Shown piece by piece: positions 1-9,688 of a stretch of DNA of 32,828 nucleotides (the stretch's first letter is position 1; each line of letters begins with the position of its first letter). The translations under genes and the position numbers were made by a program. Source of the DNA: Bifidobacteriaceae bacterium. GTDB taxonomy: Bacteria; Actinomycetota; Actinomycetes; Actinomycetales; WQXJ01. The DNA lies in NCBI GenBank assembly GCA_031278675.1, contig JAITJY010000236.1, positions 1-32,828 of the forward strand, given 5' to 3'. The notes under the pieces were generated by a model. The model was not told where the DNA came from, made no database searches, and saw nothing but the letters and a program-made list of their open reading frames with translations.

Positions 1-52
1 AGCTCAATGCCGAGGTCACGGACGTAGGTAGCCCAGTCGTCGCTCCTCGCAT
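1..52 (-). CDS. 5' end (17 codons) of a leftward gene that runs out of the window; product unknown
   Basis: ATG at 52-50 on the minus strand, preceded by GAAAGGTG (SD-like) a few nt upstream. The frame stays open to the window edge. Too short to assign. Confidence 0.25.
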   Translation of the reverse strand, partial: MRGATTGLPTSVTSALS

Positions 53-71
53 CTGGCACCTTTCAAGGCTG

Positions 72-111
72 CGCCTGACCGGTCTTGCATCACGCCTGAC
101 CGGTCTGGCAT
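72..111. promoter_or_regulatory. Tandem operator-like direct repeat, two copies of CGCCTGACCGGTCT(T/G)GCAT 21 bp apart, each with the palindrome GACCGGTC
   Basis: Copies at 72-90 and 93-111 differ at one base. The 21-bp register equals two helical turns. It lies 20-60 bp upstream of the leftward ATG at 52. Confidence 0.35.
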
Positions 112-299
112 AGTTGGACGGTAGTCACATCCCCCGGCTTGTCGCGAGCCCTCGACCCAGGAGGCCAGCGTGGTGTCCGCTTTCACGTCACCCCGAGCGC
201 TGTTCAGCGCTGGCGGTCAGGGTTGCGTTCCAGCAGGCCCGAATGAGCTTGCGTCGTCCGACATCATTCCCAGCCGTCCGCATGGTAAACGTAAAGTGC

Positions 300-328
300 T
301 TGCAAAGCGCGGGCAATCTTGCGATAAT
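300..328 (+). promoter_or_regulatory. Sigma70-like promoter, TTGCAA - 17 nt - GATAAT
   Basis: -35 TTGCAA at 300-305, 17-nt spacer at 306-322, -10 GATAAT at 323-328. The predicted TSS at about 334-336 coincides with the 5' arm of the long helix described below. Confidence 0.45.
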
Positions 329-334
329 GGAGAT

Positions 335-460
335 TGTCTAGATCGTCGGTACAAGTACCCGCTCTTGGCGCAATACCTGGTAACAGGCAGCCGCCACAGT
401 AGGTGTTGCAAAGCGCTTACCGATGATCTAGACAGTCAGGTGGCTGTCTGTTTTTGTTTT
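335..460 (+). ncRNA. Candidate structured leader / riboswitch-like attenuator (or ~125-nt sRNA) upstream of tRNA-His and hisS-like
   Basis: A 15-bp helix pairs 335-349 (TGTCTAGATCGTCGG) with 420-434 (CCGATGATCTAGACA): 14 Watson-Crick pairs plus one G-U. It encloses about 70 nt that include a CCUG-GUAA-CAGG GNRA hairpin (376-387) and a 5-bp helix 367-371/413-417. The 3' arm overlaps the 5' arm of the terminator hairpin at 429-450. Confidence 0.4.
429..460 (+). terminator. Rho-independent terminator
   Basis: Stem TAGACAGTC / GGCTGTCTG (429-437 with 442-450, 7 Watson-Crick pairs plus 2 G-U) and loop AGGT, followed by TTTTTGTTTT (451-460). Confidence 0.6.
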
Positions 461-501
461 CTCCACTTGGATCGATTCTTTCAACGGGTCCGCGTGGCGT
501 G

Positions 502-576
502 GGCCGGGGTAGCTCAATGGTAGAGCATCCGACTGTGGATCGGAGAGCGCGGGTTCGATTCCCGTCCCTGGCACCA
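502..576 (+). tRNA. tRNA-His (anticodon GTG), atypical: A73 discriminator, genomic G at -1, encoded CCA
   Basis: Hand-folded cloverleaf. Acceptor GCCGGGG (503-509) pairs with CCCTGGC (566-572). D arm is GCTC/GAGC. Anticodon stem is TCCGA/TCGGA with loop CTGTGGA (anticodon 535-537 GTG). T arm is GCGGG-TTCGATT-CCCGT. Position 573 is A, then CCA at 574-576. G502 sits at -1 opposite A73. Confidence 0.88.
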
Positions 577-608
577 ACTAAGGAGGAACGCTGTGATAAG
601 GATACGAT

Positions 609-2090
609 ATGACAACTAAACTGGCCTCACCTACGCCGCTCAGAGGGTTTCAAGATCTTCTGCCTGCCGATATGTCGCTCAGAAATGAAGTCACGCGGAG
701 AATCGCCGGTGTTTACCAGGCTTACGGGTACCTCCCTCTAGACACTCCAATAGCAGAGCGCCTCACCACATTAAAGGGAGCGGGCGGCGACGAAACCGAC
801 GCGCTAATCTTCACCCTACAAACCCCGGAAGGACAAAAGATTGGTCTGAGATTCGATCTGACTGTTCCTTTCGCTAGGATAGTGGCGAACTACCACCCTC
901 ATAGAATCAAGCTGCCCTTCCGCCGGTACCACGTCGGACCTGTATTCAGAGCTGATGCACCTCAACCCGAGCAAGGACGATACCGTCAATTCACGCAATT
1001 CGATATCGATGTAGCCGGCAGTGAGGATGTCTCGGCCGACGCAGAGATCGTTGCTGTGATGTGCGACGCCATGGCATCGCTGACACTGTCTCCTTCGAGC
1101 GATCCCGAGGAACCAGGCTACTTCATCCGGATCAACAGCAGAAAGCTCGTTGACGCTGCATTGGCCGGGCTCGGACTCACAGAGCGCCACGTTGTTCATC
1201 ACGTACTGCGAGTCCTGGATAAGCTCGATAAGCTTCCTGAAGACGAGGTTCTCAAAGAGCTTCAAACTGGCCGGGTCGACTCGTCTGGAGCATTCGTGGA
1301 TGGTCTCGGGTTAGAGGAGGGAACTGCCACCGCCCTTCTTCGGTTTGTCAAAATTCGGGGTTGGGGACGAAGAGATACCCTAGCCCAACTAGAAGCGAAT
1401 CTCCCAAATACTAGCGCTTCGGCAGAGGCGGTAAACGAGATGAGCCTCCTACTGGACCACCTAGATGCGCTTGGGGTTGAGGAGCATGCTGTACTGCTTG
1501 ACGCAAGCCTTGCCAGGGGTCTTGAGTACTACACGGGTATCGTTTACGAAGGCACTCTTAGCGGCTCGGGTGTAGGGTCAGTCATCGGCGGCGGTCGGTA
1601 CGACGGACTAGTCAGCCGATTTAGTAACGAACGAATCCCCGCCGTCGGCGCATCGATTGGACTGGACAGGCTGGTGGCCGGGCTTAGAACGCTAAATATC
1701 CCAATCGTCGAATCCGGCCAGGCAGCAGTGACGCTAGTCCTAGCCACGGATCCCGCGCTTCAGATTGAGGCGAGCCGCGTTGCCGGTGAGCTGCGTCGAA
1801 GCGGAATTCCGACGGAACTCTATACCGGGGAAGCCATTGGAAAACTGGCCAAAGCGTTGCGCTATGCGAACTCGCGGGGCTTCTCCGTCACTGTCGTTGT
1901 TGGACCGGACGAACTCGCAGGGGGGTACGTTTCCGTAAAAGATCTCAGCCGTGGCAAAGAAGAGAGGGCGCAGATATCGGCGCGCGAGACGTATCGAGCG
2001 GCGGGAAGGGTTGGTCAGCACCAAGTCAACCGTGAGGACATGCCTCGCGCTGTAATGAACATAATTAAAGGGGTGCCAAGTGACGAATAA
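609..2090 (+). CDS. hisS: Histidyl-tRNA synthetase, full length with anticodon-binding domain; eukaryote/archaea-like sequence signatures
   Basis: Class II HisRS motifs: LRFDLTVPFARIVA; motif 2 RRYHVGPVFRADAPQPEQGRYRQFTQFDIDVAG; LARGLEYYTGIVYEG; motif 3 GGGRYDGLVSRF...PAVGASIGLDRL. C-terminal anticodon-binding-like region is VTLVLA...RYANSRGFSVTVVVGPDELAGGYVSVKDL. The VLDKLDKLPEDEV segment resembles the DKLDK..EEV segment of eukaryotic HisRS. Weak SD AAGGA at 598-602. Confidence 0.9.
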   Translation: MTTKLASPTPLRGFQDLLPADMSLRNEVTRRIAGVYQAYGYLPLDTPIAERLTTLKGAGGDETDALIFTLQTPEGQKIGLRFDLTVPFARIVANYHPHRIKLPFRRYHVGPVFRADAPQPEQGRYRQFTQFDIDVAGSEDVSADAEIVAVMCDAMASLTLSPSSDPEEPGYFIRINSRKLVDAALAGLGLTERHVVHHVLRVLDKLDKLPEDEVLKELQTGRVDSSGAFVDGLGLEEGTATALLRFVKIRGWGRRDTLAQLEANLPNTSASAEAVNEMSLLLDHLDALGVEEHAVLLDASLARGLEYYTGIVYEGTLSGSGVGSVIGGGRYDGLVSRFSNERIPAVGASIGLDRLVAGLRTLNIPIVESGQAAVTLVLATDPALQIEASRVAGELRRSGIPTELYTGEAIGKLAKALRYANSRGFSVTVVVGPDELAGGYVSVKDLSRGKEERAQISARETYRAAGRVGQHQVNREDMPRAVMNIIKGVPSDE

Positions 2091-2922
2091 AGTGGAACGC
2101 CACCCAACTACGTTGCTCATTTCTGCGGCGGGCGGCAATGCCACTGCTATCGCGGCAATTGACAGCCCTCTTTCGCGGACTGAATACGCGGCACGGGGAA
2201 GCCGTTTGCTCTCAAGTTTGCAAGGCGACGGAGCCGAGCAGGCGGGGTTCTTCCTGCCGAGTTCCGCTCACTTAGAAATGGCTGGTGCGGAATTCTGCGG
2301 CAACGCTACGCGGGCTGCCTTCGTAGCCCGTGAGATTCTCGGCGGAGACCGACGGGAGCGCATCACGGTTTCGGGTTACGAAGGCTCCGTCCTTGGGGCC
2401 GCACAACCTTCTTCTTGCGACCAGTGCGGCTCAACGTGCCAGTGCGGGCGCCATTTCATTGCGTGGTGCGCGTTTGAGCGCATGCAAATTCGCACGCAGG
2501 ACTGCGTATGGAGCCGAGGGCGCGGTACTCTTGTCGACCTTGGTGGAATCGTCCACTTCGTGACGTGGGACCTTTGGCCGACCGAAAGCTCCGAGGTTAG
2601 AGCTTACCATGAGGCCTTCAGGGACGAGATGGATCTCCAGAATCGAGACGCCGTCGGGCTAGTGCGGCTTCGAGAGATTCGAACGGCACTCGGCGCTCCC
2701 GCAGATGGCTTGCTCGGCATTTTTCCCATAGTTTGGGTGCGAGCAATTGACAGCTTCTTCTTTGAGACCTCGTGTGGCTCAGGCTCAATTGCCGCTGCAG
2801 TCGTCGCTGGCAGCGGACCAGTTGTCCAGCCGTCGAACGGCGTGATTGACGTCCGAGTCGAAGGACCATTCGTCCGGCTGGAGAGCGAGATGGAGGTATT
2901 GATGTGCACTTCGAACGGCTAA
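2080..2922 (+). CDS. DapF-fold (PLP-independent, two-cysteine) amino-acid epimerase/racemase-like protein with a Cys-rich insert
   Basis: N-terminal GGNAT (compare DapF GNDF). EMAGAEFCGNATRA (Cys73) resembles the DapF xMCGNGxRC motif. GGIVHFV resembles GNPHxV. ETSCGSGSIAAA (Cys232) resembles DapF ETLACGTGA. GTG start with AAAGGGG SD. Overlaps the hisS stop by 11 nt. Confidence 0.7.
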   Translation: MTNKVERHPTTLLISAAGGNATAIAAIDSPLSRTEYAARGSRLLSSLQGDGAEQAGFFLPSSAHLEMAGAEFCGNATRAAFVAREILGGDRRERITVSGYEGSVLGAAQPSSCDQCGSTCQCGRHFIAWCAFERMQIRTQDCVWSRGRGTLVDLGGIVHFVTWDLWPTESSEVRAYHEAFRDEMDLQNRDAVGLVRLREIRTALGAPADGLLGIFPIVWVRAIDSFFFETSCGSGSIAAAVVAGSGPVVQPSNGVIDVRVEGPFVRLESEMEVLMCTSNG

Positions 2923-3536
2923 TTGCTTCAAGCACTAGTGCCTCCGACATCCAAGACTTCGTCGCCGCCTACCGGGATGCTTTTGGCGGCGCACCCTACT
3001 TTGAGACGTATAGCGACGAATACATTCGGGATGAGGTACTGATCCCGCATCTCGAGAATGGACTAGTAGTGGTCGCCCGGGACAATGGCCACGTAGTTGG
3101 ATTTGGCTGTACGGTACCGGTCTATTCGTCGCCCCCTGATGTCATGGAATATATCAAAAAGCTTTCAACAGAGCCAGGCCTCCCATCCGATCTGGCACTC
3201 GAGCGGACATGGTACATGTCGGAACTGGGCACGGTAACCACTTATCGCCTGCGGGGCGTAGCGTATCAGGTGGTGCGTAGCAGGCTGATTTCAGTTTCTC
3301 ATATGGGCGGGCTGTTCTACTTCATGCGAACGGCAAAGGAAGGCTCCAATTCGCGGCACCTTTACGCGCGAATCGGCGCGCTGCCAATTGGTCAGCCTCA
3401 GAACGTTGGCGGTCTGAGAGTAACGAAAGATTCCTCCTCAAGAAGCTTAGAGCGCCAGTACATGTACGGTCGCGTAAGTGATGGGCTAGAGGCTGTACTG
3501 GGCAGGATTCGCGAAAGCGCAGACACGTCGTGCTGA
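2904..3536 (+). CDS. GNAT-family acyl-CoA N-acyltransferase
   Basis: YMSELGTVTTYRLRGVAYQVV contains the R-x-x-G-x-A pyrophosphate-binding loop of GNAT motif A, and the beta-strand pattern VVVARDNGHVVGFG lies upstream. GTG start 7 nt after GGAGG. Overlaps the upstream gene by 19 nt. Confidence 0.7.
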   Translation: MHFERLIASSTSASDIQDFVAAYRDAFGGAPYFETYSDEYIRDEVLIPHLENGLVVVARDNGHVVGFGCTVPVYSSPPDVMEYIKKLSTEPGLPSDLALERTWYMSELGTVTTYRLRGVAYQVVRSRLISVSHMGGLFYFMRTAKEGSNSRHLYARIGALPIGQPQNVGGLRVTKDSSSRSLERQYMYGRVSDGLEAVLGRIRESADTSC

Positions 3537-3596
3537 GACTGCGCGTGGCCGACGGCGCATTGGTCAGGAATTTCAAAGAATTATAGGGAATATAAT

Positions 3597-4124
3597 ATGA
3601 AGCAATATCAAATTGCCGTTATCGGTTCAGCCGGTTCAGAGGAGTATCCTTACGACAAGCCGCTGGCAGCTATGTTTGAAGCTGCTGAAAAAATCGGCCA
3701 ACTACTGGCTGTTAACAAGCTAATCGTGGTTTGTGGTGGCAAGGGCGGCGTGATGGAAGCCGTCAGTCGGGGTGCTAAATCAGCTGGAGGTATAACCGTA
3801 GCCGAAATTGCCGGCTTAAGCCGATGGGCTGCAAACGACTACATTGATGTCGAAATTGTGACTGGCGACCTGGCGTTTCGTGGGCCATCGCAACTTATCG
3901 CTATGTCAGATGCCGTTATTGCGTTAGGCGGCGGTAGCGGAACTTTACAGGAAATTTGTGTGGCGTATCGCCTCCAGAAACCAATAATTTTGCTAAGAGG
4001 TTTTGGCGGTTGGGTCGATAAACTATCACCAGTGAGTTTCTTGGACGAAAGGCGGCTAGTAAAATTTTACCAAGCGACAACGCCTGAAAATGCAGTCCAA
4101 AAAGCATTAAGTATGTTGAAATAG
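3597..4124 (+). CDS. LOG/SLOG-superfamily Rossmann protein (TIGR00725-like; possible nucleotide phosphoribohydrolase or nucleotide sensor)
   Basis: CGGKGGVMEAVSRGA (GGxxGxM motif) and LGGGSGTLQE (PGGxGTxxE-type motif) are the LOG-family signatures. Size is 175 aa. AGGGA SD lies 7 nt upstream. Confidence 0.75.
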   Translation: MKQYQIAVIGSAGSEEYPYDKPLAAMFEAAEKIGQLLAVNKLIVVCGGKGGVMEAVSRGAKSAGGITVAEIAGLSRWAANDYIDVEIVTGDLAFRGPSQLIAMSDAVIALGGGSGTLQEICVAYRLQKPIILLRGFGGWVDKLSPVSFLDERRLVKFYQATTPENAVQKALSMLK

Positions 4125-4194
4125 GAATCAATATGAATCTAAGTTTATCACGCATCGAAACAACAGCTTCAATCGTCAACGTTCTAATCGTCGA

Positions 4195-4794
4195 CTGTCG
4201 ATTGAGGTAGAGGCTGCCAGCTTAGATAAATCAGCCGGTAGTATGACTCTGGTTGACGACTTGGCAGTTTCTGGCCGGACTATCGAGGTCGCCAGGAGAA
4301 CACTAACAACTTCTGGCCAAACCATCGGCACTGTTGGACTGGGTTTACTCTTTAATAGCAACAGATGTCAAAGGCTAATCGGCGTAGACGACACGCGTCC
4401 GGTGGTAGTTTATTCACGCGAGGGCGGAAGTTATCCACCTATCAACCCTATCGACACGCTTGCTGGTAATGCCGGGATTTTAGAAGGCCTAACCGAACGG
4501 TATTTTCAACCAACCCAGCCAATTTTCGAGGCGGTCCCCCTAGAGAAGGTTGTCGCCTTTGATTCGAACATCGACTTCATCGTAGCGGGCAGACTGATTG
4601 TAGAACACCGCCCATTCCCGATCGCCAAAGGAAAAATGCCACCACTCCCCGTAAAAAGGAGCAAATCCCTCGTCGACCAACAAGTCATGCAGAAGTATGC
4701 GGTTCGCCCGCGCTCCTTTCGACACTTGGGTGGAAAATGTTGGAATCTTGACGGGATTCGAGAAATCCGATATCCGAGTCCCCATTTGAAGTGA
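4195..4794 (+). pseudogene. Type I phosphoribosyltransferase-like ORF lacking the N-terminal half; probable remnant, boundaries uncertain
   Basis: The PRPP-binding motif MTLVDDLAVSGRTIEVA sits at the first ATG (4243). PRTase-like sequence (LSIEVEAASLDKSAGS) continues upstream in the same frame with no canonical start back to the stop at 4117-4119. The 3' 255 nt are antisense to the VanX-like gene. Confidence 0.35.
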
Positions 4795-5244
4795 CTGTCC
4801 GGCTTGAGAGACTAATGTCAAGTCGACCGCAGCACCAGCTGGATGTCCAGCAACTGAGGGTACAGCGGTGAAGGCGTGAGTAATGCGAATGAGCGCGGAT
4901 TCAGTGATGTACGGGTGAGCCTTGCGGAGCATTCGAAGTCTTTGATCGTAGTATTGGCGCTGGATATCCGGATGTCTGTAGCCATAGACTATGCAGAGTC
5001 TCAGGCCTCTTGCTTTAGCAGCTTGATTCACGAGAGAGAGCTTCTGCGCAACCGTTTCCCGGACAAGTATCGCGTTCCCGGTATAAGGCGTCATGTCCGT
5101 CTGGGTGTGCCGCGCTATGATGGTCGAGTCGAAGGTGCGGACGTCGAGGAGTGACTCGGCGCTTTGACCAGCGGGAACCGTAGCCAAATCGTCATACTCC
5201 AACACTCTCCGCGTAGTGAAGAATTCACTTGACAATCGCGCCAT
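4540..5244 (-). CDS. VanX/DdpX-like D-Ala-D-Ala dipeptidase (peptidase M15D)
   Basis: VAGHPAGAAVDLTL resembles the VanX S-x-H-x-x-G-x-A-x-D zinc/substrate motif. FYGEWWHFSF resembles the VanX EWWH motif about 30 aa from the C-terminus. AGGAGG SD lies 8 nt upstream of the ATG. Confidence 0.8.
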   Translation of the reverse strand: MARLSSEFFTTRRVLEYDDLATVPAGQSAESLLDVRTFDSTIIARHTQTDMTPYTGNAILVRETVAQKLSLVNQAAKARGLRLCIVYGYRHPDIQRQYYDQRLRMLRKAHPYITESALIRITHAFTAVPSVAGHPAGAAVDLTLVSQAGQSLQMGTRISDFSNPVKIPTFSTQVSKGARANRILLHDLLVDEGFAPFYGEWWHFSFGDREWAVFYNQSARYDEVDVRIKGDNLL

Positions 5245-5634
5245 GCAGCCAATTACCTCCTGTTAGTTCAATATTGCGACCAAGGAACGGAGGACTCCGC
5301 GGTACCATCCTTGTTCCGCAACGCATTCCTGCGCTGCGGCACTCTGTGCCAATCTATCAACAATTGATTTCGGCTGCTGCATTTACGGTTCGGCTTCCGG
5401 CGCGTATTTGGCGCGCAGCTCACCCTAGCGTGAATAGGGCTCAAACGCTTTGCTGCTATTGTGGCATACTTGTCTGCTCTCGTCAAGCGGCCGACAAGAC
5501 TCAACTTTACGTTGCTCGCACCATAGTCACCTAATGTGATCGCGAAACGGCGTGCTTGCCTCACTTGGGGGTGGTCGCGAAACGCCGCGGTCGCTGGCGC
5601 TTGGCGGGCTTCGCCGGGTGTTCGCTGGCTGGAC

Positions 5635-5826
5635 ATGGCGAAGGGCCTGGACATGGTGACGAAGCGTGGGTTGACGAAGGCCTACGCGGCTGACTACGGA
5701 CGTGCGTCGAAGACGGATAAGGGGCGGATGCTCGAGGAGTTGACGGCGGCTGCGGGCTGGTCGCGGGTGAACGCGCGTCGCGCGAGCAGGCGGGCGTCTG
5801 AGCGGCGCGGGCGGCGTCGGTGGTGA
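5635..5826 (+). mobile_element. N-terminal fragment (~63 aa) of a transposase (HTH region only); IS remnant
   Basis: MVTKRGLTKAYAADYGRASKTDKGRMLEELTAAAGWSRVNARRA resembles the N-terminal HTH segment of actinobacterial DDE transposases, from memory. The ORF stops long before any catalytic domain. Confidence 0.4.
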
Positions 5827-5867
5827 GCCACTTAGCCTGAGATAGGCGCTCGTAGGAGCCAAGAGAT

Positions 5868-5955
5868 TGAGGGGGCGTCCATGCTTGACGCTCCGCTGAA
5901 TCTTGCGCTCAATCATTCGGTGCTTACCAAACTGTCGATACGCGGAGACTATGGG
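5868..5955 (-). mobile_element. Possible C-terminal fragment of an IS5-family transposase
   Basis: The minus-strand frame reads YRQFGKHRMIERKIQRSVKHGR, which resembles the IS5-family Y(K/R)xRxxIERxFxxLKxxR C-terminal motif. There is no intact ORF context. Confidence 0.25.
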
Positions 5956-6030
5956 CATATGCGCAGGACGCGGTGCCACCATCGTGCAAGTAGGGGAGTA
6001 GAAGACTACGCGCTCATAGGGGTCTCAGAG

Positions 6031-6666
6031 TCACAGCGCCGCATATCCCGTCGTCCTCCCACTACCAACTCGGTGAATCAACCCATCCCCCACCAGCCGG
6101 TCAACGTCCATCTTGACCGTGCTGTAGTTGATGCCAGTTGCCTGAGAAATCTCCAACCTGCTGGCCCGCCCCTGCTGGCGAATGACGGCAAGCACGCCAG
6201 CTTGCCGCTGGGCGCGAGCATCGACACTGAGTTGTTTGGCCGACGCTTGGTGCTCGGCGTACTCGTCCGGCATAGCGCGGCGTAGCAGGTTGGAGATGGC
6301 TGCGCGGCTGACCCCATACCGCTGGGCGATGCTGGCTTGCGAGTCGCCCTGTCTGAATAGGCGCTCAATCTCGCGTAGCTGGTCATCGTCCAGCTTGCAC
6401 AGTGACTGCGGCCTGATCGTCACACCAGCCTTGCGAAGATGGGAGGCAACAGTGTCAGGCGATGAGCCGATAACCTCGGCCACTGCCGTTAGCGACTGGC
6501 CGCCCTCGTACATGGCGGCGGCCCGAGCGACGTCATCGTCGGTCCAGACCTTGGCCAACGGTCGCCACGTTCGCTCCGATGGTCCTGGGTCAGGCCGTTG
6601 ATCTGCGGCTTTGCTGATTTTCTGAAATAGGCGGAGTACGTGAGCCTGGTTTGAGTAGGCTCGCAC
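6031..6666 (-). CDS. Multi-HTH DNA-binding protein (three predicted HTH/winged-helix modules)
   Basis: Three HTH-like segments: GQSLTAVAEVIGSSPDTVASHLRKAG, GDSQASIAQRYGVSRAAISNLLRRA and SRLEISQATGINYSTVKMDVDRLVGDGLI. Confidence 0.6.
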   Translation of the reverse strand: MRAYSNQAHVLRLFQKISKAADQRPDPGPSERTWRPLAKVWTDDDVARAAAMYEGGQSLTAVAEVIGSSPDTVASHLRKAGVTIRPQSLCKLDDDQLREIERLFRQGDSQASIAQRYGVSRAAISNLLRRAMPDEYAEHQASAKQLSVDARAQRQAGVLAVIRQQGRASRLEISQATGINYSTVKMDVDRLVGDGLIHRVGSGRTTGYAAL

Positions 6667-6806
6667 TAGGCCCGCCAGATGCGTCCATGCGCCGGCGATG
6701 ATCTGTCTGGACGCGGGTTGCGAGCGCCTGTGGACGGGCGATGCCCGGTTGGCCAGCGCCGCCCGGGGTTTCGCAATTGACGTATTCGCGGATCGGCGGA
6801 CCCGGG

Positions 6807-8363
6807 CTAAGACCCACCCGCCGGGACACTGCCCGGCAACAGGACGCGGGCGATCCGGTTGCGCACGCCATCCGGGATGCGGCGCCAGGCCCGCTTCGCC
6901 AACGGCGGACGCGATCTGACCGGTTTGGCGAGGCTTAAGAACAGGGCCGACCAGCGCTCGGCGAGACGTTCCTCGGAGAACTCCGTCATGCGGGCCGCCG
7001 CGTTGGCTGACATGGCGCGCTTCGCCGAGGCAGGCGAGTCGAGATACTCGATAATCCGGCGTGCCAACTCGGCCTGATTGCCGGGCTCAACCAGGTGGCC
7101 GTTGACCCCGTCTAGGATCATCGCCGCCGGACCGTATTTTGTGTCATAAGCGATGCACGGCGTCCCGGCCGCCATCGACTCCATGATGGTCAGCGAAAAC
7201 CCCTCCCAGCGTGAGGTCAACAAAGAGCATTCGGCGGTCCCGAAGACCGCCCTCGCACTGTTGGTGTAACCAGCGAAGTTGACCGCCTCAGCGAGGTTCA
7301 AAGACCCGGCGAACGCCTTCAAATCGCTCTCCAAGGGGCCGTGGCCCCAGACCTCGAGCTGCGCGTCGGGACGCGCCTGGCGCACAGCGCCCAATGCGGC
7401 GATCGCCGAGGCCACATTCTTTTCTTCGCTCAGCCGCGCCACCATCACCAGTTTCCCCGGGACGGTGTCCGGCGCCGGCGGCGCCGGCGTAATGGCATGC
7501 GGTATTACATGAAGACGATCCTCAAATCCGAACCGGTCCACCACGTCAGCCTTTTGTTGCGGCGTCAGCACCACCAACGCGTCAACCCCGGGCAGATTGT
7601 TCAACACCGCCCGGTTCCCGGTCCGGATAACCGACGATCCGGGCCGCTCATGAATCGAATGGAACACAAAAATCTTCCGGGCCAACCGGTTCTCCAGTGA
7701 CAGCAACACCCCGTCAAGCGCCCGCGCCTCACACACCAGATACGTCAATTCGCCCGCGCTCAGCTCGGCCATAAAATGCCGCCTGAAGCCGTCCAGCGTC
7801 CGAAAGGCCCGCGCCGCGCCGGTCAGCGGCGCCAACACCACCTCCGCCTTCGGATACGGTCCACCCGGCGGCGCCGCTCCCACCGGGCGGTACTGGAAGA
7901 CCGACCCATCCGGCCTGCACCACAAGCGCCCCACCGCCCGGCCAGCCACCGTGATGGTCGCCGCATAGGGCGCACCGCTTGGATCATGGACCTCCCGGAC
8001 CTCATAAGTTGGCAGGTCACGGCACAGTTCGGTGATCGCCTCGGCCACCTTGGGCGCACCTGGCGCCGCCGCCGCGCCCCGGTAATAGTGGTTGATGTTG
8101 ACCAGGCCAACCCCACACGGCAGGTCATAGCGTTCACGCACCGCAGCCGCGACTTCACCGAAGCCTGCGGCGTCGTGAAAGGTCGCGATCACCGGATAGA
8201 TTCCCCGCAAGCGAGCCAGCACCCCCGCCTTGCGCAGCAGTGAGGCGGTCAAGCCGCCGTGTTCGGCGTCCAAGCGGCTCGTCAAAAAGACATAACGCAA
8301 CGCGATCCCCCGCAATCTCGTAGCAAAGTGGTAGCCAGTGGGCTGTCCAGCCCATGCTAACAA
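6807..8363 (-). CDS. GT4-family glycosyltransferase (TagE-like size)
   Basis: C-terminal GT-B signature ...LLTSRWEGFSLTIMESMAAGTPCIAYDTKYGPAAMILDGVNGHLVE (E-x7-E motif). Confidence 0.85.
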   Translation of the reverse strand: MLAWAGQPTGYHFATRLRGIALRYVFLTSRLDAEHGGLTASLLRKAGVLARLRGIYPVIATFHDAAGFGEVAAAVRERYDLPCGVGLVNINHYYRGAAAAPGAPKVAEAITELCRDLPTYEVREVHDPSGAPYAATITVAGRAVGRLWCRPDGSVFQYRPVGAAPPGGPYPKAEVVLAPLTGAARAFRTLDGFRRHFMAELSAGELTYLVCEARALDGVLLSLENRLARKIFVFHSIHERPGSSVIRTGNRAVLNNLPGVDALVVLTPQQKADVVDRFGFEDRLHVIPHAITPAPPAPDTVPGKLVMVARLSEEKNVASAIAALGAVRQARPDAQLEVWGHGPLESDLKAFAGSLNLAEAVNFAGYTNSARAVFGTAECSLLTSRWEGFSLTIMESMAAGTPCIAYDTKYGPAAMILDGVNGHLVEPGNQAELARRIIEYLDSPASAKRAMSANAAARMTEFSEERLAERWSALFLSLAKPVRSRPPLAKRAWRRIPDGVRNRIARVLLPGSVPAGGS

Positions 8364-8377
8364 TCCCGCCCGAATGG

Positions 8378-8935
8378 TTAGTCATCCGTTGCACGATGCC
8401 GCGTGGCCAGCACCGCCGCCACCACCAGCGCATCGCCCGGCAAGTCCACCACCCCACCCTGCGGCTCGCTACGGCGATCATCGGTGGATCCGGGCTTCGC
8501 CCACACGCGCTCCACCCAGCCCCCCCGCACCAGGCAGTCGACCGCCTCAGCTACCACCCATTGCCCGATCACGCCCGCCCCCACGGTCCCGCCCGCCCAG
8601 ATTGCCCGGCGCACCGGGTGAGCCCCGCCTACCAGCGTCAGGTCCCGTTCGGCGAGGAAGCGGACGAGCGGGACGAGGCGGCATCGTCCTTGGGCGAAAA
8701 CCCAACGGCCCTCGACGTCAACCTCCACCACCTGGTCGAGCCGGCGCCGGTCCAACTGCGCCAAGACCGCCCGGATCGAGGGGACCCCGGGAGACGGATC
8801 GTCCGGGCCGGAGCGATATTCCGCCCGGCCCGCCCCGTAAAGCGAAGTCACCAACTGGCCGACAGCCGCCGTGTGGTAAAGGTGGCCAACCAAGCGCGCC
8901 GCCTCCCGGTGCCCCGCCCGCCCGAACAAGCTCAC
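8378..8935 (-). CDS. Hypothetical protein
   Basis: This is the most protein-like composition among several overlapping high-GC ORFs. GTG start with AAGGTGG SD. The 3' end runs into a partial MITE copy. No motif recognised. Confidence 0.45.
   Translation of the reverse strand: MSLFGRAGHREAARLVGHLYHTAAVGQLVTSLYGAGRAEYRSGPDDPSPGVPSIRAVLAQLDRRRLDQVVEVDVEGRWVFAQGRCRLVPLVRFLAERDLTLVGGAHPVRRAIWAGGTVGAGVIGQWVVAEAVDCLVRGGWVERVWAKPGSTDDRRSEPQGGVVDLPGDALVVAAVLATRHRATDD
8415..8497. repeat. Partial copy (one terminus plus about 80 bp) of the 159-bp MITE-like element
   Basis: ...CTGCGGCTCGCTACGGCGATCATCGGTGGATCCGGGCT aligns with the reverse complement of the copy A left end, ...GCCGCTGGCTACGGCCATCATCGGTGGATCCAGGCT. 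Confidence 0.5.
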
Positions 8936-8974
8936 CTGGCCACCTTACGTGATGCGATGCGCCACAATGGCTAA

Positions 8975-9688
8975 GTGCGAGTGATTCTGGCCGTGATGGC
9001 ACATCCTGATGACGTTGACTTCTGGGCTGCGGGCACGGTGGCCACCTGGGTCGCGGGCGGCGCCCGGGTGACATATTTGCTGGTCACCGGCGGTGACGCC
9101 GGGGGGTTCGAGGCCGGTGCCGAACGCGGGGAGATGGGCCGGCGGCGCCGGGATGAACAGCGCCGCGCCGCTGGTGTTCTCGGGGTGGGAGATGTCCGGT
9201 TCCTCGACGGCTTCGCCGATGGCGCCGTCGCCGTGACCGACGAGTTGGTCGGCGGTATTGTCCACGCTATCCGCGAACTGCGTCCCGACCTCGTCTTGGC
9301 CCAAAGCCCCACCCGGACCTGGCACGACATCCGCCTGTCTCACCCCGATCACCTCGCCGTTGGCGAGGCCACCGCCCGGGCGGTCTACCCCTTCGCCCGC
9401 AATCCTTTCGCTGACTTCGGCGCGGCCGGCTCCGACGCAGCCAGCCTTGCTGCGTTCGCGGTCCGTGAACTCTGGCTTCAGGGCGATCCCGAACCGAACC
9501 ATGTGGTAGATGTGACCGCGTTTAGGGCCCAGCGCCGCGAGGCGCTGGCTGCTCATGCCAGCCAGCATCCCGACCTCCCGGGCGCCTTGGACCGGGCCGA
9601 ACGGGAGGCTGGCGGCGTCGCCGCGCGGTGGGGCTTACCGAAGGGCTCCCTCGCCGAGGAGTTCAGACGGATTCTGATTCCTCATTAG
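8975..9688 (+). CDS. PIG-L/LmbE-family N-acetylglucosaminyl deacetylase
   Basis: N-terminal VMAHPDDVDFWAAGT (AHPDD motif) and the later SHPDH motif. Confidence 0.85.
   Translation: MRVILAVMAHPDDVDFWAAGTVATWVAGGARVTYLLVTGGDAGGFEAGAERGEMGRRRRDEQRRAAGVLGVGDVRFLDGFADGAVAVTDELVGGIVHAIRELRPDLVLAQSPTRTWHDIRLSHPDHLAVGEATARAVYPFARNPFADFGAAGSDAASLAAFAVRELWLQGDPEPNHVVDVTAFRAQRREALAAHASQHPDLPGALDRAEREAGGVAARWGLPKGSLAEEFRRILIPH

Follow-up and report, generated by a model that had tools for sequence, protein, structure and literature searches.

Why should a low-G+C block close to the chromosomal origin of an actinobacterium carry its own tRNA-His and histidyl-tRNA synthetase (HisRS) next to a racemase, an acetyltransferase, and a VanX-like dipeptidase? 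The block, referred to here as the island (positions 300 to 5535), lies in a 32,828-nucleotide stretch of contig JAITJY010000236.1 from a Bifidobacteriaceae bacterium (GenBank assembly GCA_031278675.1). This whole stretch, positions 1 to 32,828, is called the window, and positions 5536 to 32828 are its remainder. An initial annotation made from the sequence alone had treated the gene set as an unrecognised combination. We found that the set is not unique and joins two recurrent modules, a tRNA-His/HisRS cassette and a module consisting of a racemase, a GNAT-family acyltransferase, and an M15-family peptidase. Our tentative proposal, which we place a little short of an even chance, is that the island is a horizontally acquired, leader-controlled histidine-pool operon (L-histidine, D-histidine, and N-acetylhistidine) with a dedicated, identity-shifted charging pair.

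The composition of the island is atypical and fits horizontal acquisition. Its G+C content is 54.4%, compared to 64.2% for the remainder of the window, and the G+C content at third codon positions (GC3) is 43 to 63% for five island genes versus 71 to 83% for 18 flanking genes. In tetranucleotide usage, the island differs from the rest of the window by an L1 distance of 0.37, as against 0.12 to 0.18 for other 5-kb windows. The lowest 200-bp bin (41% G+C) is at positions 4001 to 4200. A compositionally foreign accessory block, as proposed in the initial annotation, was thus borne out by G+C content, GC3, and tetranucleotide usage. The step that it had estimated by hand (45 to 55% against 65 to 80%) is real but smaller than stated.

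Recurrence of the racemase-GNAT-M15 module

With one genome scanned for each GTDB species, 512 relatives of the island racemase were obtained, of which the best 80 loci were kept; the genome containing the window is not among them. These 80 loci are mostly from Saccharibacteria, including oral Nanosynbacter and TM7 HOT-348, with scattered copies in Cardiobacterium, Clostridium, and one Microbacterium. Among Actinobacteria, the racemase is seldom found (1 of the best 80 GTDB loci). Its nearest relatives, mainly in Saccharibacteria and other Patescibacteria, are 42 to 46% identical, and some of them are fused to a GNAT or M15 domain.

Partners were counted in the 52 loci of the close racemase family, many of which belong to closely related Saccharibacteria so that the percentages are not independent counts: an M15 gene is found within 3 kb of the racemase in 43 loci (83%) and a GNAT gene in 31 (60%), while the locus contains hisS in 19 (37%), hisG in 15 (29%), a histidine ammonia-lyase (HAL) gene in 12 (23%), hisE in 10 (19%), and tRNA-His in 9 (17%). 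At least one of these five histidine-specific features is present in 31 of the 52 loci (60%). For hisS, the observed 37% compares with about 1 to 2% expected by chance in a genome of about 1 Mb. The initial annotation had allowed that the genes might never be co-localised elsewhere; the frequencies of M15, GNAT, and histidine genes clearly show that they are. The histidine and D-amino-acid themes that it had discerned are likewise real.

The same partners are also joined in frame. The racemase is fused to a following GNAT domain in L030, L073, L077, and P0036 and to a preceding M15 domain in L004, L016, L039, L050, and P0110, and a distant version of a GNAT-racemase fusion is present in L091. 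In L089 and L091, this distant second GNAT-racemase version stands ahead of an M15 gene and beside the HisRS cassette described below, and the association therefore arose or persisted in two lineages. The attachment of module versions to histidine-charging genes in two lineages is the strongest argument for a functional link.

When the neighbouring open reading frames (ORFs) were clustered without bias, the same partners emerged, along with a deacylase and a TrpR-like regulator. The deacylase is an AstE/AspA-type (aspartoacylase-like) N-acyl-amino-acid deacylase encoded inside the racemase-GNAT-M15-hisS module at six loci (L019 10160-10981, L024 10181-11005, L030 8274-9092, L035 9639-10415, L040 717-1538, and L048 5395-6237). 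The TrpR-like (PF01371) regulator gene lies beside the racemase, mostly directly upstream, at about 15 loci (e.g., L045 7561-7878). A SLOG-family gene occurs near the module or the cassette in L021, L054, and L087; with the module, this amounts to 1 of the 52 close loci (L021) and 1 of 25 distant loci (L054).

Some racemase loci have other surroundings. In oral Saccharibacteria (L002 6757-7965 and L007 to L013), HisG and PRA-PH (HisE), which carry out the first two steps of histidine synthesis, are encoded directly upstream of the racemase, and no further histidine biosynthesis gene was seen within these loci of about 17 kb. The racemases from outside the candidate phyla radiation (CPR), i.e., those of Microbacterium, Cardiobacterium, and Clostridium, are stand-alone or lie beside an amino-acid ABC transporter and offered no clue to function. 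The Microbacterium panaciterrae gene (L041 1944-3775), the only other actinobacterial one among the best 80, adjoins a polar-amino-acid ABC transporter (SBP_bac_3 plus permease) on a 6.5-kb contig, with no GNAT, M15, or hisS gene nearby.

The tRNA-His/HisRS cassette and its origin

The window tRNA-His does not have the bacterial G-1:C73 identity pair. It has discriminator A73 (A573), a G1-C72 pair, and G502 at position -1, unpaired opposite A73. The D-loop (AATGGTA) has 7 nt and is without U20a, and a G.U pair is shifted to 4.69. The adjacent HisRS scores 331.6 bits with TIGR00442, the hisS equivalog (cut-off, 286.75), and matches both PF13393 and PF03129. Motif 2, HisA (RGLxYYTG), HisB (GGGRYD), and motif 3 are all present; R114, R126, Q127, Q130, D132, R303-T309, G327-R330, and G347-R354 are invariant in the clade alignment; and the protein has an anticodon-binding (HGTP) domain followed by a conserved C-terminal extension. 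The enzyme is of the eukaryote/archaeal-like class, with 6nhi, human cytosolic HisRS, and 3net as the best PDB matches and E. coli-type enzymes far weaker. A HisZ-like regulator was considered and rejected: the TIGR00443 score is 185 bits against a cut-off of 271.65, and the anticodon-binding domain and catalytic motifs are retained.

The nearest HisRS relatives are 52 to 56% identical and include a Pseudonocardiaceae metagenome-assembled genome (MAG) and five Kineosporia species; identity to CPR HisRS is only 32 to 37%. In all 10 loci encoding a HisRS 44 to 56% identical (L087 to L093, L097, L098, and L130), a tRNA-His gene is directly upstream, at about 30 to 60 nt 5' of the HisRS gene, Kineosporia and actinobacterial metagenome contigs included. 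The dedicated tRNA-His that the initial annotation had placed at the centre of the island thus recurs directly 5' of HisRS in every close relative. All 10 of these tRNAs have A73. The acceptor pair is G1-U72 in L088 to L093, L098, and L130, G1-C72 in L097 as in the window, and A1-U72 in L087. Position -1 is A, C, or T in 8 of the 10 relatives and G in L087, again as in the window. The window tRNA is 80 to 85% identical to the tRNAs upstream of the related HisRS genes in L087 to L092 and 60 to 70% identical to CPR tRNA-His. The usual cassette order is tRNA-His, HisRS, an overlapping HisG-like gene, an ORF of about 100 amino acids, and HAL, with an M15 gene upstream of the cassette in L088, L089, and L091 and a SLOG gene upstream in L087. 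The imported HisRS and its own tRNA are probably a self-sufficient charging pair, which is possibly orthogonal to the host pair. The pair is likely "private," i.e., additional to the housekeeping pair.

Several relatives of the cassette carry further genes. In Kineosporia mesophila (GCA_039536945.1; L088 10625-14616), a Pnkp/Hen1 RNA-repair pair lies directly 3' of an M15, tRNA-His, HisRS, and HisG-like cassette. In L089 (7908-9866) and L091 (6992-8950), the gene that comes right after HisRS encodes a HisG-like domain joined to an EgtD-type histidine methyltransferase domain (PF10017), and the ORF of about 100 amino acids and an aromatic ammonia-lyase gene follow it, which suggests more histidine-modifying chemistry in the cassette. 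Most Patescibacteria tRNA-His copies are canonical with G-1:C73. Two MAG contigs have a racemase-adjacent tRNA-His with A73 and no G at -1 (L046 4992-5068 and L057 3981-4055), and delta-G-1-like tRNA-His therefore also exists outside the alphaproteobacteria and the actinobacterial cassette.

The delta-G-1 identity set of A73, U72, and the anticodon has been described for a pair that is orthogonal to the E. coli pair, and the delta-G-1 tRNA-His has a nine-nucleotide D-loop with U20a (PMC3064791). Like this alphaproteobacterial pair, the cassette has A73 in place of C73, with G1-U72 and no G-1 in the nearest relatives. The HisRS is also long and divergent with a conserved extra C-terminal segment, and hisS is linked to HisG in the relatives. 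In contrast to the alphaproteobacterial pair, which is the sole housekeeping pair, the cassette lies on a low-GC island in the actinobacterium and in an accessory context in Kineosporia, and the window tRNA departs from the published one in C72, the encoded G at -1, and the D-loop. An extra aminoacyl-tRNA synthetase beside a co-evolved, identity-shifted tRNA, with the standard pair expected elsewhere, is also the arrangement of ProRSx/tRNA-ProA in Streptomyces and of CysRS*/selC* tRNA-Cys (PMC9437257, PMC5389517). Unlike those systems, the island tRNA has the normal histidine GUG anticodon, with no recoding implied, and the pair is linked to amino-acid-modifying enzymes. The direct coupling of a HisRS-family gene to a HisG-family gene in L087 to L092 resembles HisZ-HisG; however, the HisRS is full and below all HisZ cut-offs, and the window has no HisG.

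Judged by its closest matches, the island is a composite of an actinobacterial-type cassette and a putative Patescibacteria-type module. The racemase, GNAT, and M15 proteins are closest to Patescibacteria in identity (40 to 54%), gene order, and the convergent M15 gene. In contrast, the HisRS and tRNA are closest to the actinobacterial cassettes, at 52 to 56% protein and 80 to 85% tRNA identity. SLOG accompanies both the actinobacterial cassette and the Patescibacteria-type module. All identities are 56% or lower, and the direct donors are therefore unsampled. Direct transfer from Saccharibacteria was not supported in that form, given the 40 to 54% identity and a HisRS and tRNA nearer to the actinobacterial cassettes.

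Module enzymes, proposed function, and alternatives

The racemase has catalytic Cys73 (EFCGNA) and Cys232 (SCGSG), both invariant in 22 sequences. Residues N20, E53, E71, E229, G74, N75, and S234 are also invariant and correspond to N18, E49, E65, E206, G68, N69, and S211 of HisR. Against PDB, the family profile matches only HisR (5e-25) and CntK (1e-15). The protein, first described as a DapF-fold epimerase, is hence more specifically of the CntK/HisR type, and we predict that it is a histidine racemase interconverting L- and D-histidine. Only two histidine racemases have been characterised, CntK of staphylopine synthesis and HisR of Fusobacterium nucleatum, and the physiological function of free D-histidine beyond staphylopine synthesis is considered unsettled (PMC11602996). 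The island protein shares with them the DapF fold, the two catalytic cysteines, and the same proposed histidine-binding Asn and Glu residues. It differs in its identity of about 30% or less and in its context of GNAT, M15, and histidine genes, with neither CntL/CntM opine synthesis nor an orphan gene arrangement. It also has a private 10-residue Cys-rich insertion (CDQCGSTCQCG; positions 2425 to 2463, residues ~116 to 128) and a second insertion of 7 residues, both absent from 21 of 21 aligned homologues. The Cys-rich insertion could be a metal- or redox-binding loop.

The GNAT protein matches Acetyltransf_1 marginally (22.1 bits versus a gathering threshold of 20.7) and conserves the motif R115-x-x-G-x-A/G. 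The best PDB matches of its profile are N-alpha-acetyltransferases and small-molecule acetyltransferases (Naa30 at 1e-6). Assignment as a Fem or L/F transferase was rejected, as there was no such match in Pfam, NCBIfam, or the top 60 PDB entries, and the protein is a single domain of about 200 amino acids that keeps the CoA motif.

The M15 protein scores 67.1 bits with Peptidase_M15 (threshold, 27) and keeps R71, H116, D123, D142, E181, and H184, where H116, D123, and H184 are the zinc ligands and E181 and R71 are catalytic. The catalytic and zinc residues are conserved in 48 to 49 of 49 family members. The fold, zinc ligands, catalytic Glu and Arg, and EWWH motif are those of VanX/DdpX (MEROPS M15D). 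However, the pocket differs consistently from that of VanX (S114A, D68Y, and S117P), the scores are below the VanX/DdpX equivalogs (NF033115, 47 versus 320; NF007557, 63.5 versus 176), and genes for a histidine racemase and a GNAT accompany it in place of VanH/VanA. These features fit a predicted D-dipeptidase with a substrate other than D-Ala-D-Ala.

We propose that one leader-controlled transcript starting from the promoter at 300 to 328 would carry the tRNA, which would be processed out, followed by HisRS, the racemase, GNAT, and probably SLOG. M15 would be transcribed separately and convergently to the operon, and the racemase would be translationally coupled to GNAT. M15 would free D-histidine from D-histidine-containing dipeptides, and the racemase would convert it back to L-histidine. 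GNAT would N-acetylate histidine to a form used by neither HisRS nor HAL. HisR does not accept backbone-modified histidine (PMC11602996), and under the same limit the hydrolase could only feed the racemase and GNAT could only act after it. Together with the fusions, this suggests the order D-histidine dipeptide, D-histidine in equilibrium with L-histidine, and N-acylhistidine. The deacylase found in some genomes would close the N-acylhistidine cycle. Overall, the island would salvage histidine and buffer the pool on which the co-encoded charging system draws.

Several points weigh against such a pathway. The racemase scores far below the CntK/HisR equivalog cut-offs (NF052224, 34.9 versus 400; NF033599, 31.2 versus 300) and therefore forms a separate sub-family, and the enzyme roles in these sub-families are read from sequence. 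We know of no natural source of D-histidine dipeptides, and no paper on N-acetyl-D-histidine was found in the literature searched. With C72, an encoded G-1, and a 7-nt D-loop, the tRNA is an incomplete fit to the published delta-G-1 set. The host may or may not keep a canonical hisS and tRNA-His. The window is without the HisG-like and HAL genes, the commonest partners of the cassette, and its phosphoribosyltransferase (PRTase)-like ORF looks truncated, so the island may be partly decayed. The relatedness of the Saccharibacteria loci noted above also counts here.

The broadest form of the proposal is that this actinobacterium and Kineosporia run two mutually orthogonal histidine-charging systems (G-1:C73 and the imported A73), with the accessory pair insulated and wired to an undescribed D-histidine/N-acylhistidine pathway conserved in Saccharibacteria and other Patescibacteria; we regard it as distinctly unlikely. 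A backup or resistance role, the leading alternative and in its resistance form already suggested in the initial annotation, is also unlikely, if worth some weight: the imported pair would sustain decoding during a block of the housekeeping pair, for example by a HisRS inhibitor or by a toxin acting on tRNA-His through cleavage or modification, and the other enzymes would be passengers or would detoxify a histidine analogue. Divergent second synthetase copies such as IleRS2, SerRS2, and others are a classical means of resistance (PMC9437257), both the HisRS class and the tRNA identity elements differ from the typical bacterial ones, and the Kineosporia cassette adjoins the Pnkp/Hen1 RNA-repair pair. 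However, the same review lists no HisRS resistance duplicate. This role would also leave unexplained the tight, often fused racemase-GNAT-M15 partnership and the occurrence of the same neighbourhood around the presumably sole hisS in Patescibacteria. Alternatively, His-tRNA-His could be the donor for a D-histidine peptide or an envelope modification, with GNAT as the transferase and M15 in trimming or immunity. Aminoacyl-tRNA is the substrate of the GNAT-fold Fem and L/F transferases, and non-proteinogenic tRNA-Gly genes serve cell-wall synthesis in Staphylococcus. The island has a dedicated tRNA beside its synthetase, co-transcribed with a GNAT-fold enzyme, and in two lineages the module is connected with hisS and tRNA-His. 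This role had been the first suggested for the island and is weakened because the GNAT is of the classical acetyl-CoA type: a single domain with an acyl-CoA motif that matches Naa30, Naa50, RimI, and AAC rather than Fem, MprF, or L/F transferases. In many copies of the module, neither hisS nor a tRNA gene lies within 8 kb, and the surroundings show no conserved ligase, CDPS, PEARL, or exporter. We regard a tRNA-dependent product as improbable.

In a remodelling of peptidoglycan in the manner of VanC, the racemase would supply D-histidine for an altered D-Ala-D-X terminus, or M15, in the VanX role, would remove mis-made D-Ala-D-His. The two genes are the tightest pair (83%) and are fused in several genomes, and an analogy exists with VanT/VanXY, which act in VanC-type resistance. 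A Fusobacterium hisR mutant also clumps in culture (PMC11602996). However, no Ddl- or VanC-type ligase is conserved nearby, and the linkage to GNAT, deacylase, hisG, HAL, and hisS would be left unexplained; we consider this role very improbable. The nucleotide- or tRNA-centred conflict (anti-phage) system also suggested at the outset is the least probable of all and only barely credible, even though SLOG domains occur in such systems, the block is an island, and some relatives have a STAND NTPase gene and RNA-repair genes nearby. When the island proteins were compared to PADLOC, the sole match was SLOG to PsyrA (E = 0.0015, 15.7 bits), which is not significant, and a defence system was rejected on this basis. 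In addition, the core partners are metabolic histidine genes, and SLOG is rare with the module. Finally, the island could be horizontally transferred DNA that is decaying and at present does nothing in the host, given the truncated PRTase-like ORF, the missing HisG-like and HAL genes, and the unusual Cys-rich insertion of the racemase. All five main ORFs are nevertheless intact with their catalytic residues kept, the genes are still coupled by overlapping starts and stops, the promoter is strong, and the sequence is identical in a second sample; pure decay is quite improbable.

Full-text literature searches for the racemase-GNAT-M15 module and for an accessory cassette of HisRS and tRNA-His found no paper on either, and in a 2022 review of synthetase duplications HisZ is the only entry for HisRS, with no duplicated HisRS (PMC9437257). 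The parts are of known kinds; the partnerships, like the occurrence of a mobile A73-type pair in Actinobacteria, have apparently not been described before. According to the Caulobacter study, a cell with both orthogonal HisRS/tRNA-His pairs should be constructible (PMC3064791). If true, a natural mobile A73-type cassette in Actinobacteria would be a ready-made example of two pairs and a new source of orthogonal pairs. The module itself, whose function is undescribed, is conserved beside histidine genes in Saccharibacteria and other Patescibacteria, the Nanosynbacter and TM7 HOT-348 lineages of the human mouth among them. It suggests D-histidine or N-acylhistidine chemistry in these organisms, which depend on hosts for amino acids, and bears on D-histidine biology, where few racemases are characterised.

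Features, borders, and setting of the island

The features of the island are listed in Table 1. The protein family calls of the initial annotation were essentially correct, and its promoter and structured leader were both recovered. Also confirmed were the overlaps of 11 nt (HisRS/racemase) and 19 nt (racemase/GNAT), with which the gene calls on Logan contig L001 agree. This 2.9-kb contig from another read set, sample SRR14710901, contains an identical tRNA-HisRS-racemase-GNAT stretch.

Table 1. Positions of features in the island
Feature	Position	Strand	Evidence
Sigma-70-type promoter TTGCAA-17-GATAAT, extended -10 TG	300-328	+	Consensus match only
Structured leader, 174 nt	329-502	+	Minimum free energy -66.7 kcal/mol, z = -3.5, 0/200 shuffles as stable
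tRNA-His(GTG), encoded CCA	503-576	+	Rfam match
Histidyl-tRNA synthetase, 493 aa	609-2090	+	TIGR00442 above cut-off
Two-Cys DapF-fold histidine racemase homologue (CntK/HisR family)	2080-2922	+	PF26317 CntK_N, profile matches
GNAT N-acyltransferase, R-x-x-G-x-G/A motif	2904-3536	+	Acetyltransf_1
SLOG cluster-4/TIGR00725 LOG-like nucleotide-binding protein	3597-4124	+	PF18306, TIGR00725
Candidate truncated type-I phosphoribosyltransferase	4243-4539	+	Phosphoribosyl pyrophosphate (PRPP) loop LVDDLAVSGRT read by eye
M15 VanX-like zinc D-dipeptidase, convergent to operon	4540-5244	-	Peptidase_M15
Promoter-like site TTGACG-17-CACAAT upstream of M15 gene	5458-5486	-	Consensus match only

The operon promoter is the sole promoter-like site on the + strand within positions 1 to 6800. 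The leader contains a 20-bp stem (332-351/418-437). The 3' arm of this stem shares nucleotides with a terminator-like hairpin (429-450), namely with its 5' arm, and the hairpin is followed by the T-run TTTTTGTTTT (to 460). The layout is attenuator-like, from which we infer a possible switching mechanism. A comparison to Rfam covariance models, at gathering thresholds and at E<=5, matched only the tRNA and no leader family, T-box included; a T-box or other known riboswitch was thus rejected at any threshold.

The SLOG protein scores 111.1 with PF18306 (cut-off, 26.3) and 112.6 with TIGR00725 (cut-off, 106.9). As a LOG cytokinin phosphoribohydrolase, it is below the cut-off (NF058542, 36.1 versus 300). 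The PRTase remnant of the initial annotation retains its PRPP-loop motif, but the hidden Markov model match is marginal (E = 0.055). This ORF sits in the lowest-GC stretch of the island and is probably a pseudogene.

The window is the complete contig, and the left border of the island is about 300 bp from the contig end and hence not definable. A search for mobility features recovered no integrase or transposase gene and no direct repeats on either side of the island. The transposase debris reported at 5536 to 6030 had no match in Pfam, NCBIfam, or plasmid tblastn/blastn searches. A transposase or insertion sequence remnant there and in the adjoining gene at 6031 to 6666 was not supported, as Pfam and NCBIfam gave generic helix-turn-helix matches only and the plasmid searches gave none. 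The latter gene (- strand), at the right island edge, encodes a 211-amino-acid protein with three helix-turn-helix domains (HTH_38/HTH_23 and a MarR-type winged helix) and is of intermediate composition (GC3, 0.69). Its NCBIfam match to an IS630-like transposase (E = 2e-7) covers 37 residues only. The protein could regulate the island, or it could be what is left of the N-terminus of an IS630-like transposase. On the contig-end side of the island promoter, a tandem direct repeat of 19 nt (72-111; CGCCTGACCGGTCTTGCAT / ...TGGCAT) adjoins the start of a minus-strand ORF that runs off the left end (VPDARSDDWATYVRDLGIE...). The repeat may be an operator or an attachment-site remnant.

The stretch from 8.9 to 32.8 kb is the chromosomal origin region of a high-GC actinobacterium, with PIG-L, Vut_1, parB, parA, gidB, yidC, dnaA, dnaN, recF, gyrB, gyrA, DUF3566, and tRNA-Ile. 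The window ParB is 72 to 79% identical to that of MAGs labelled Bifidobacteriaceae bacterium and 57 to 71% identical to those of Cellulomonas, Actinotalea, and other Micrococcales, which places the uncultured host in this part of the Actinomycetota. Relatives were compared at the island site by way of their ParB orthologues; in the closest one (L170; ParB, 77% identical), synteny reaches Vut_1 only, and the locus stops before the island site. Between the island and parB (6807 to 9688), the window encodes an SdgA-like GT4 glycosyltransferase and a PIG-L deacetylase. The equivalent stretch in L170 (12804-20503) is occupied by a sugar-utilisation block of about 8 kb, and this origin-proximal segment therefore varies among relatives.

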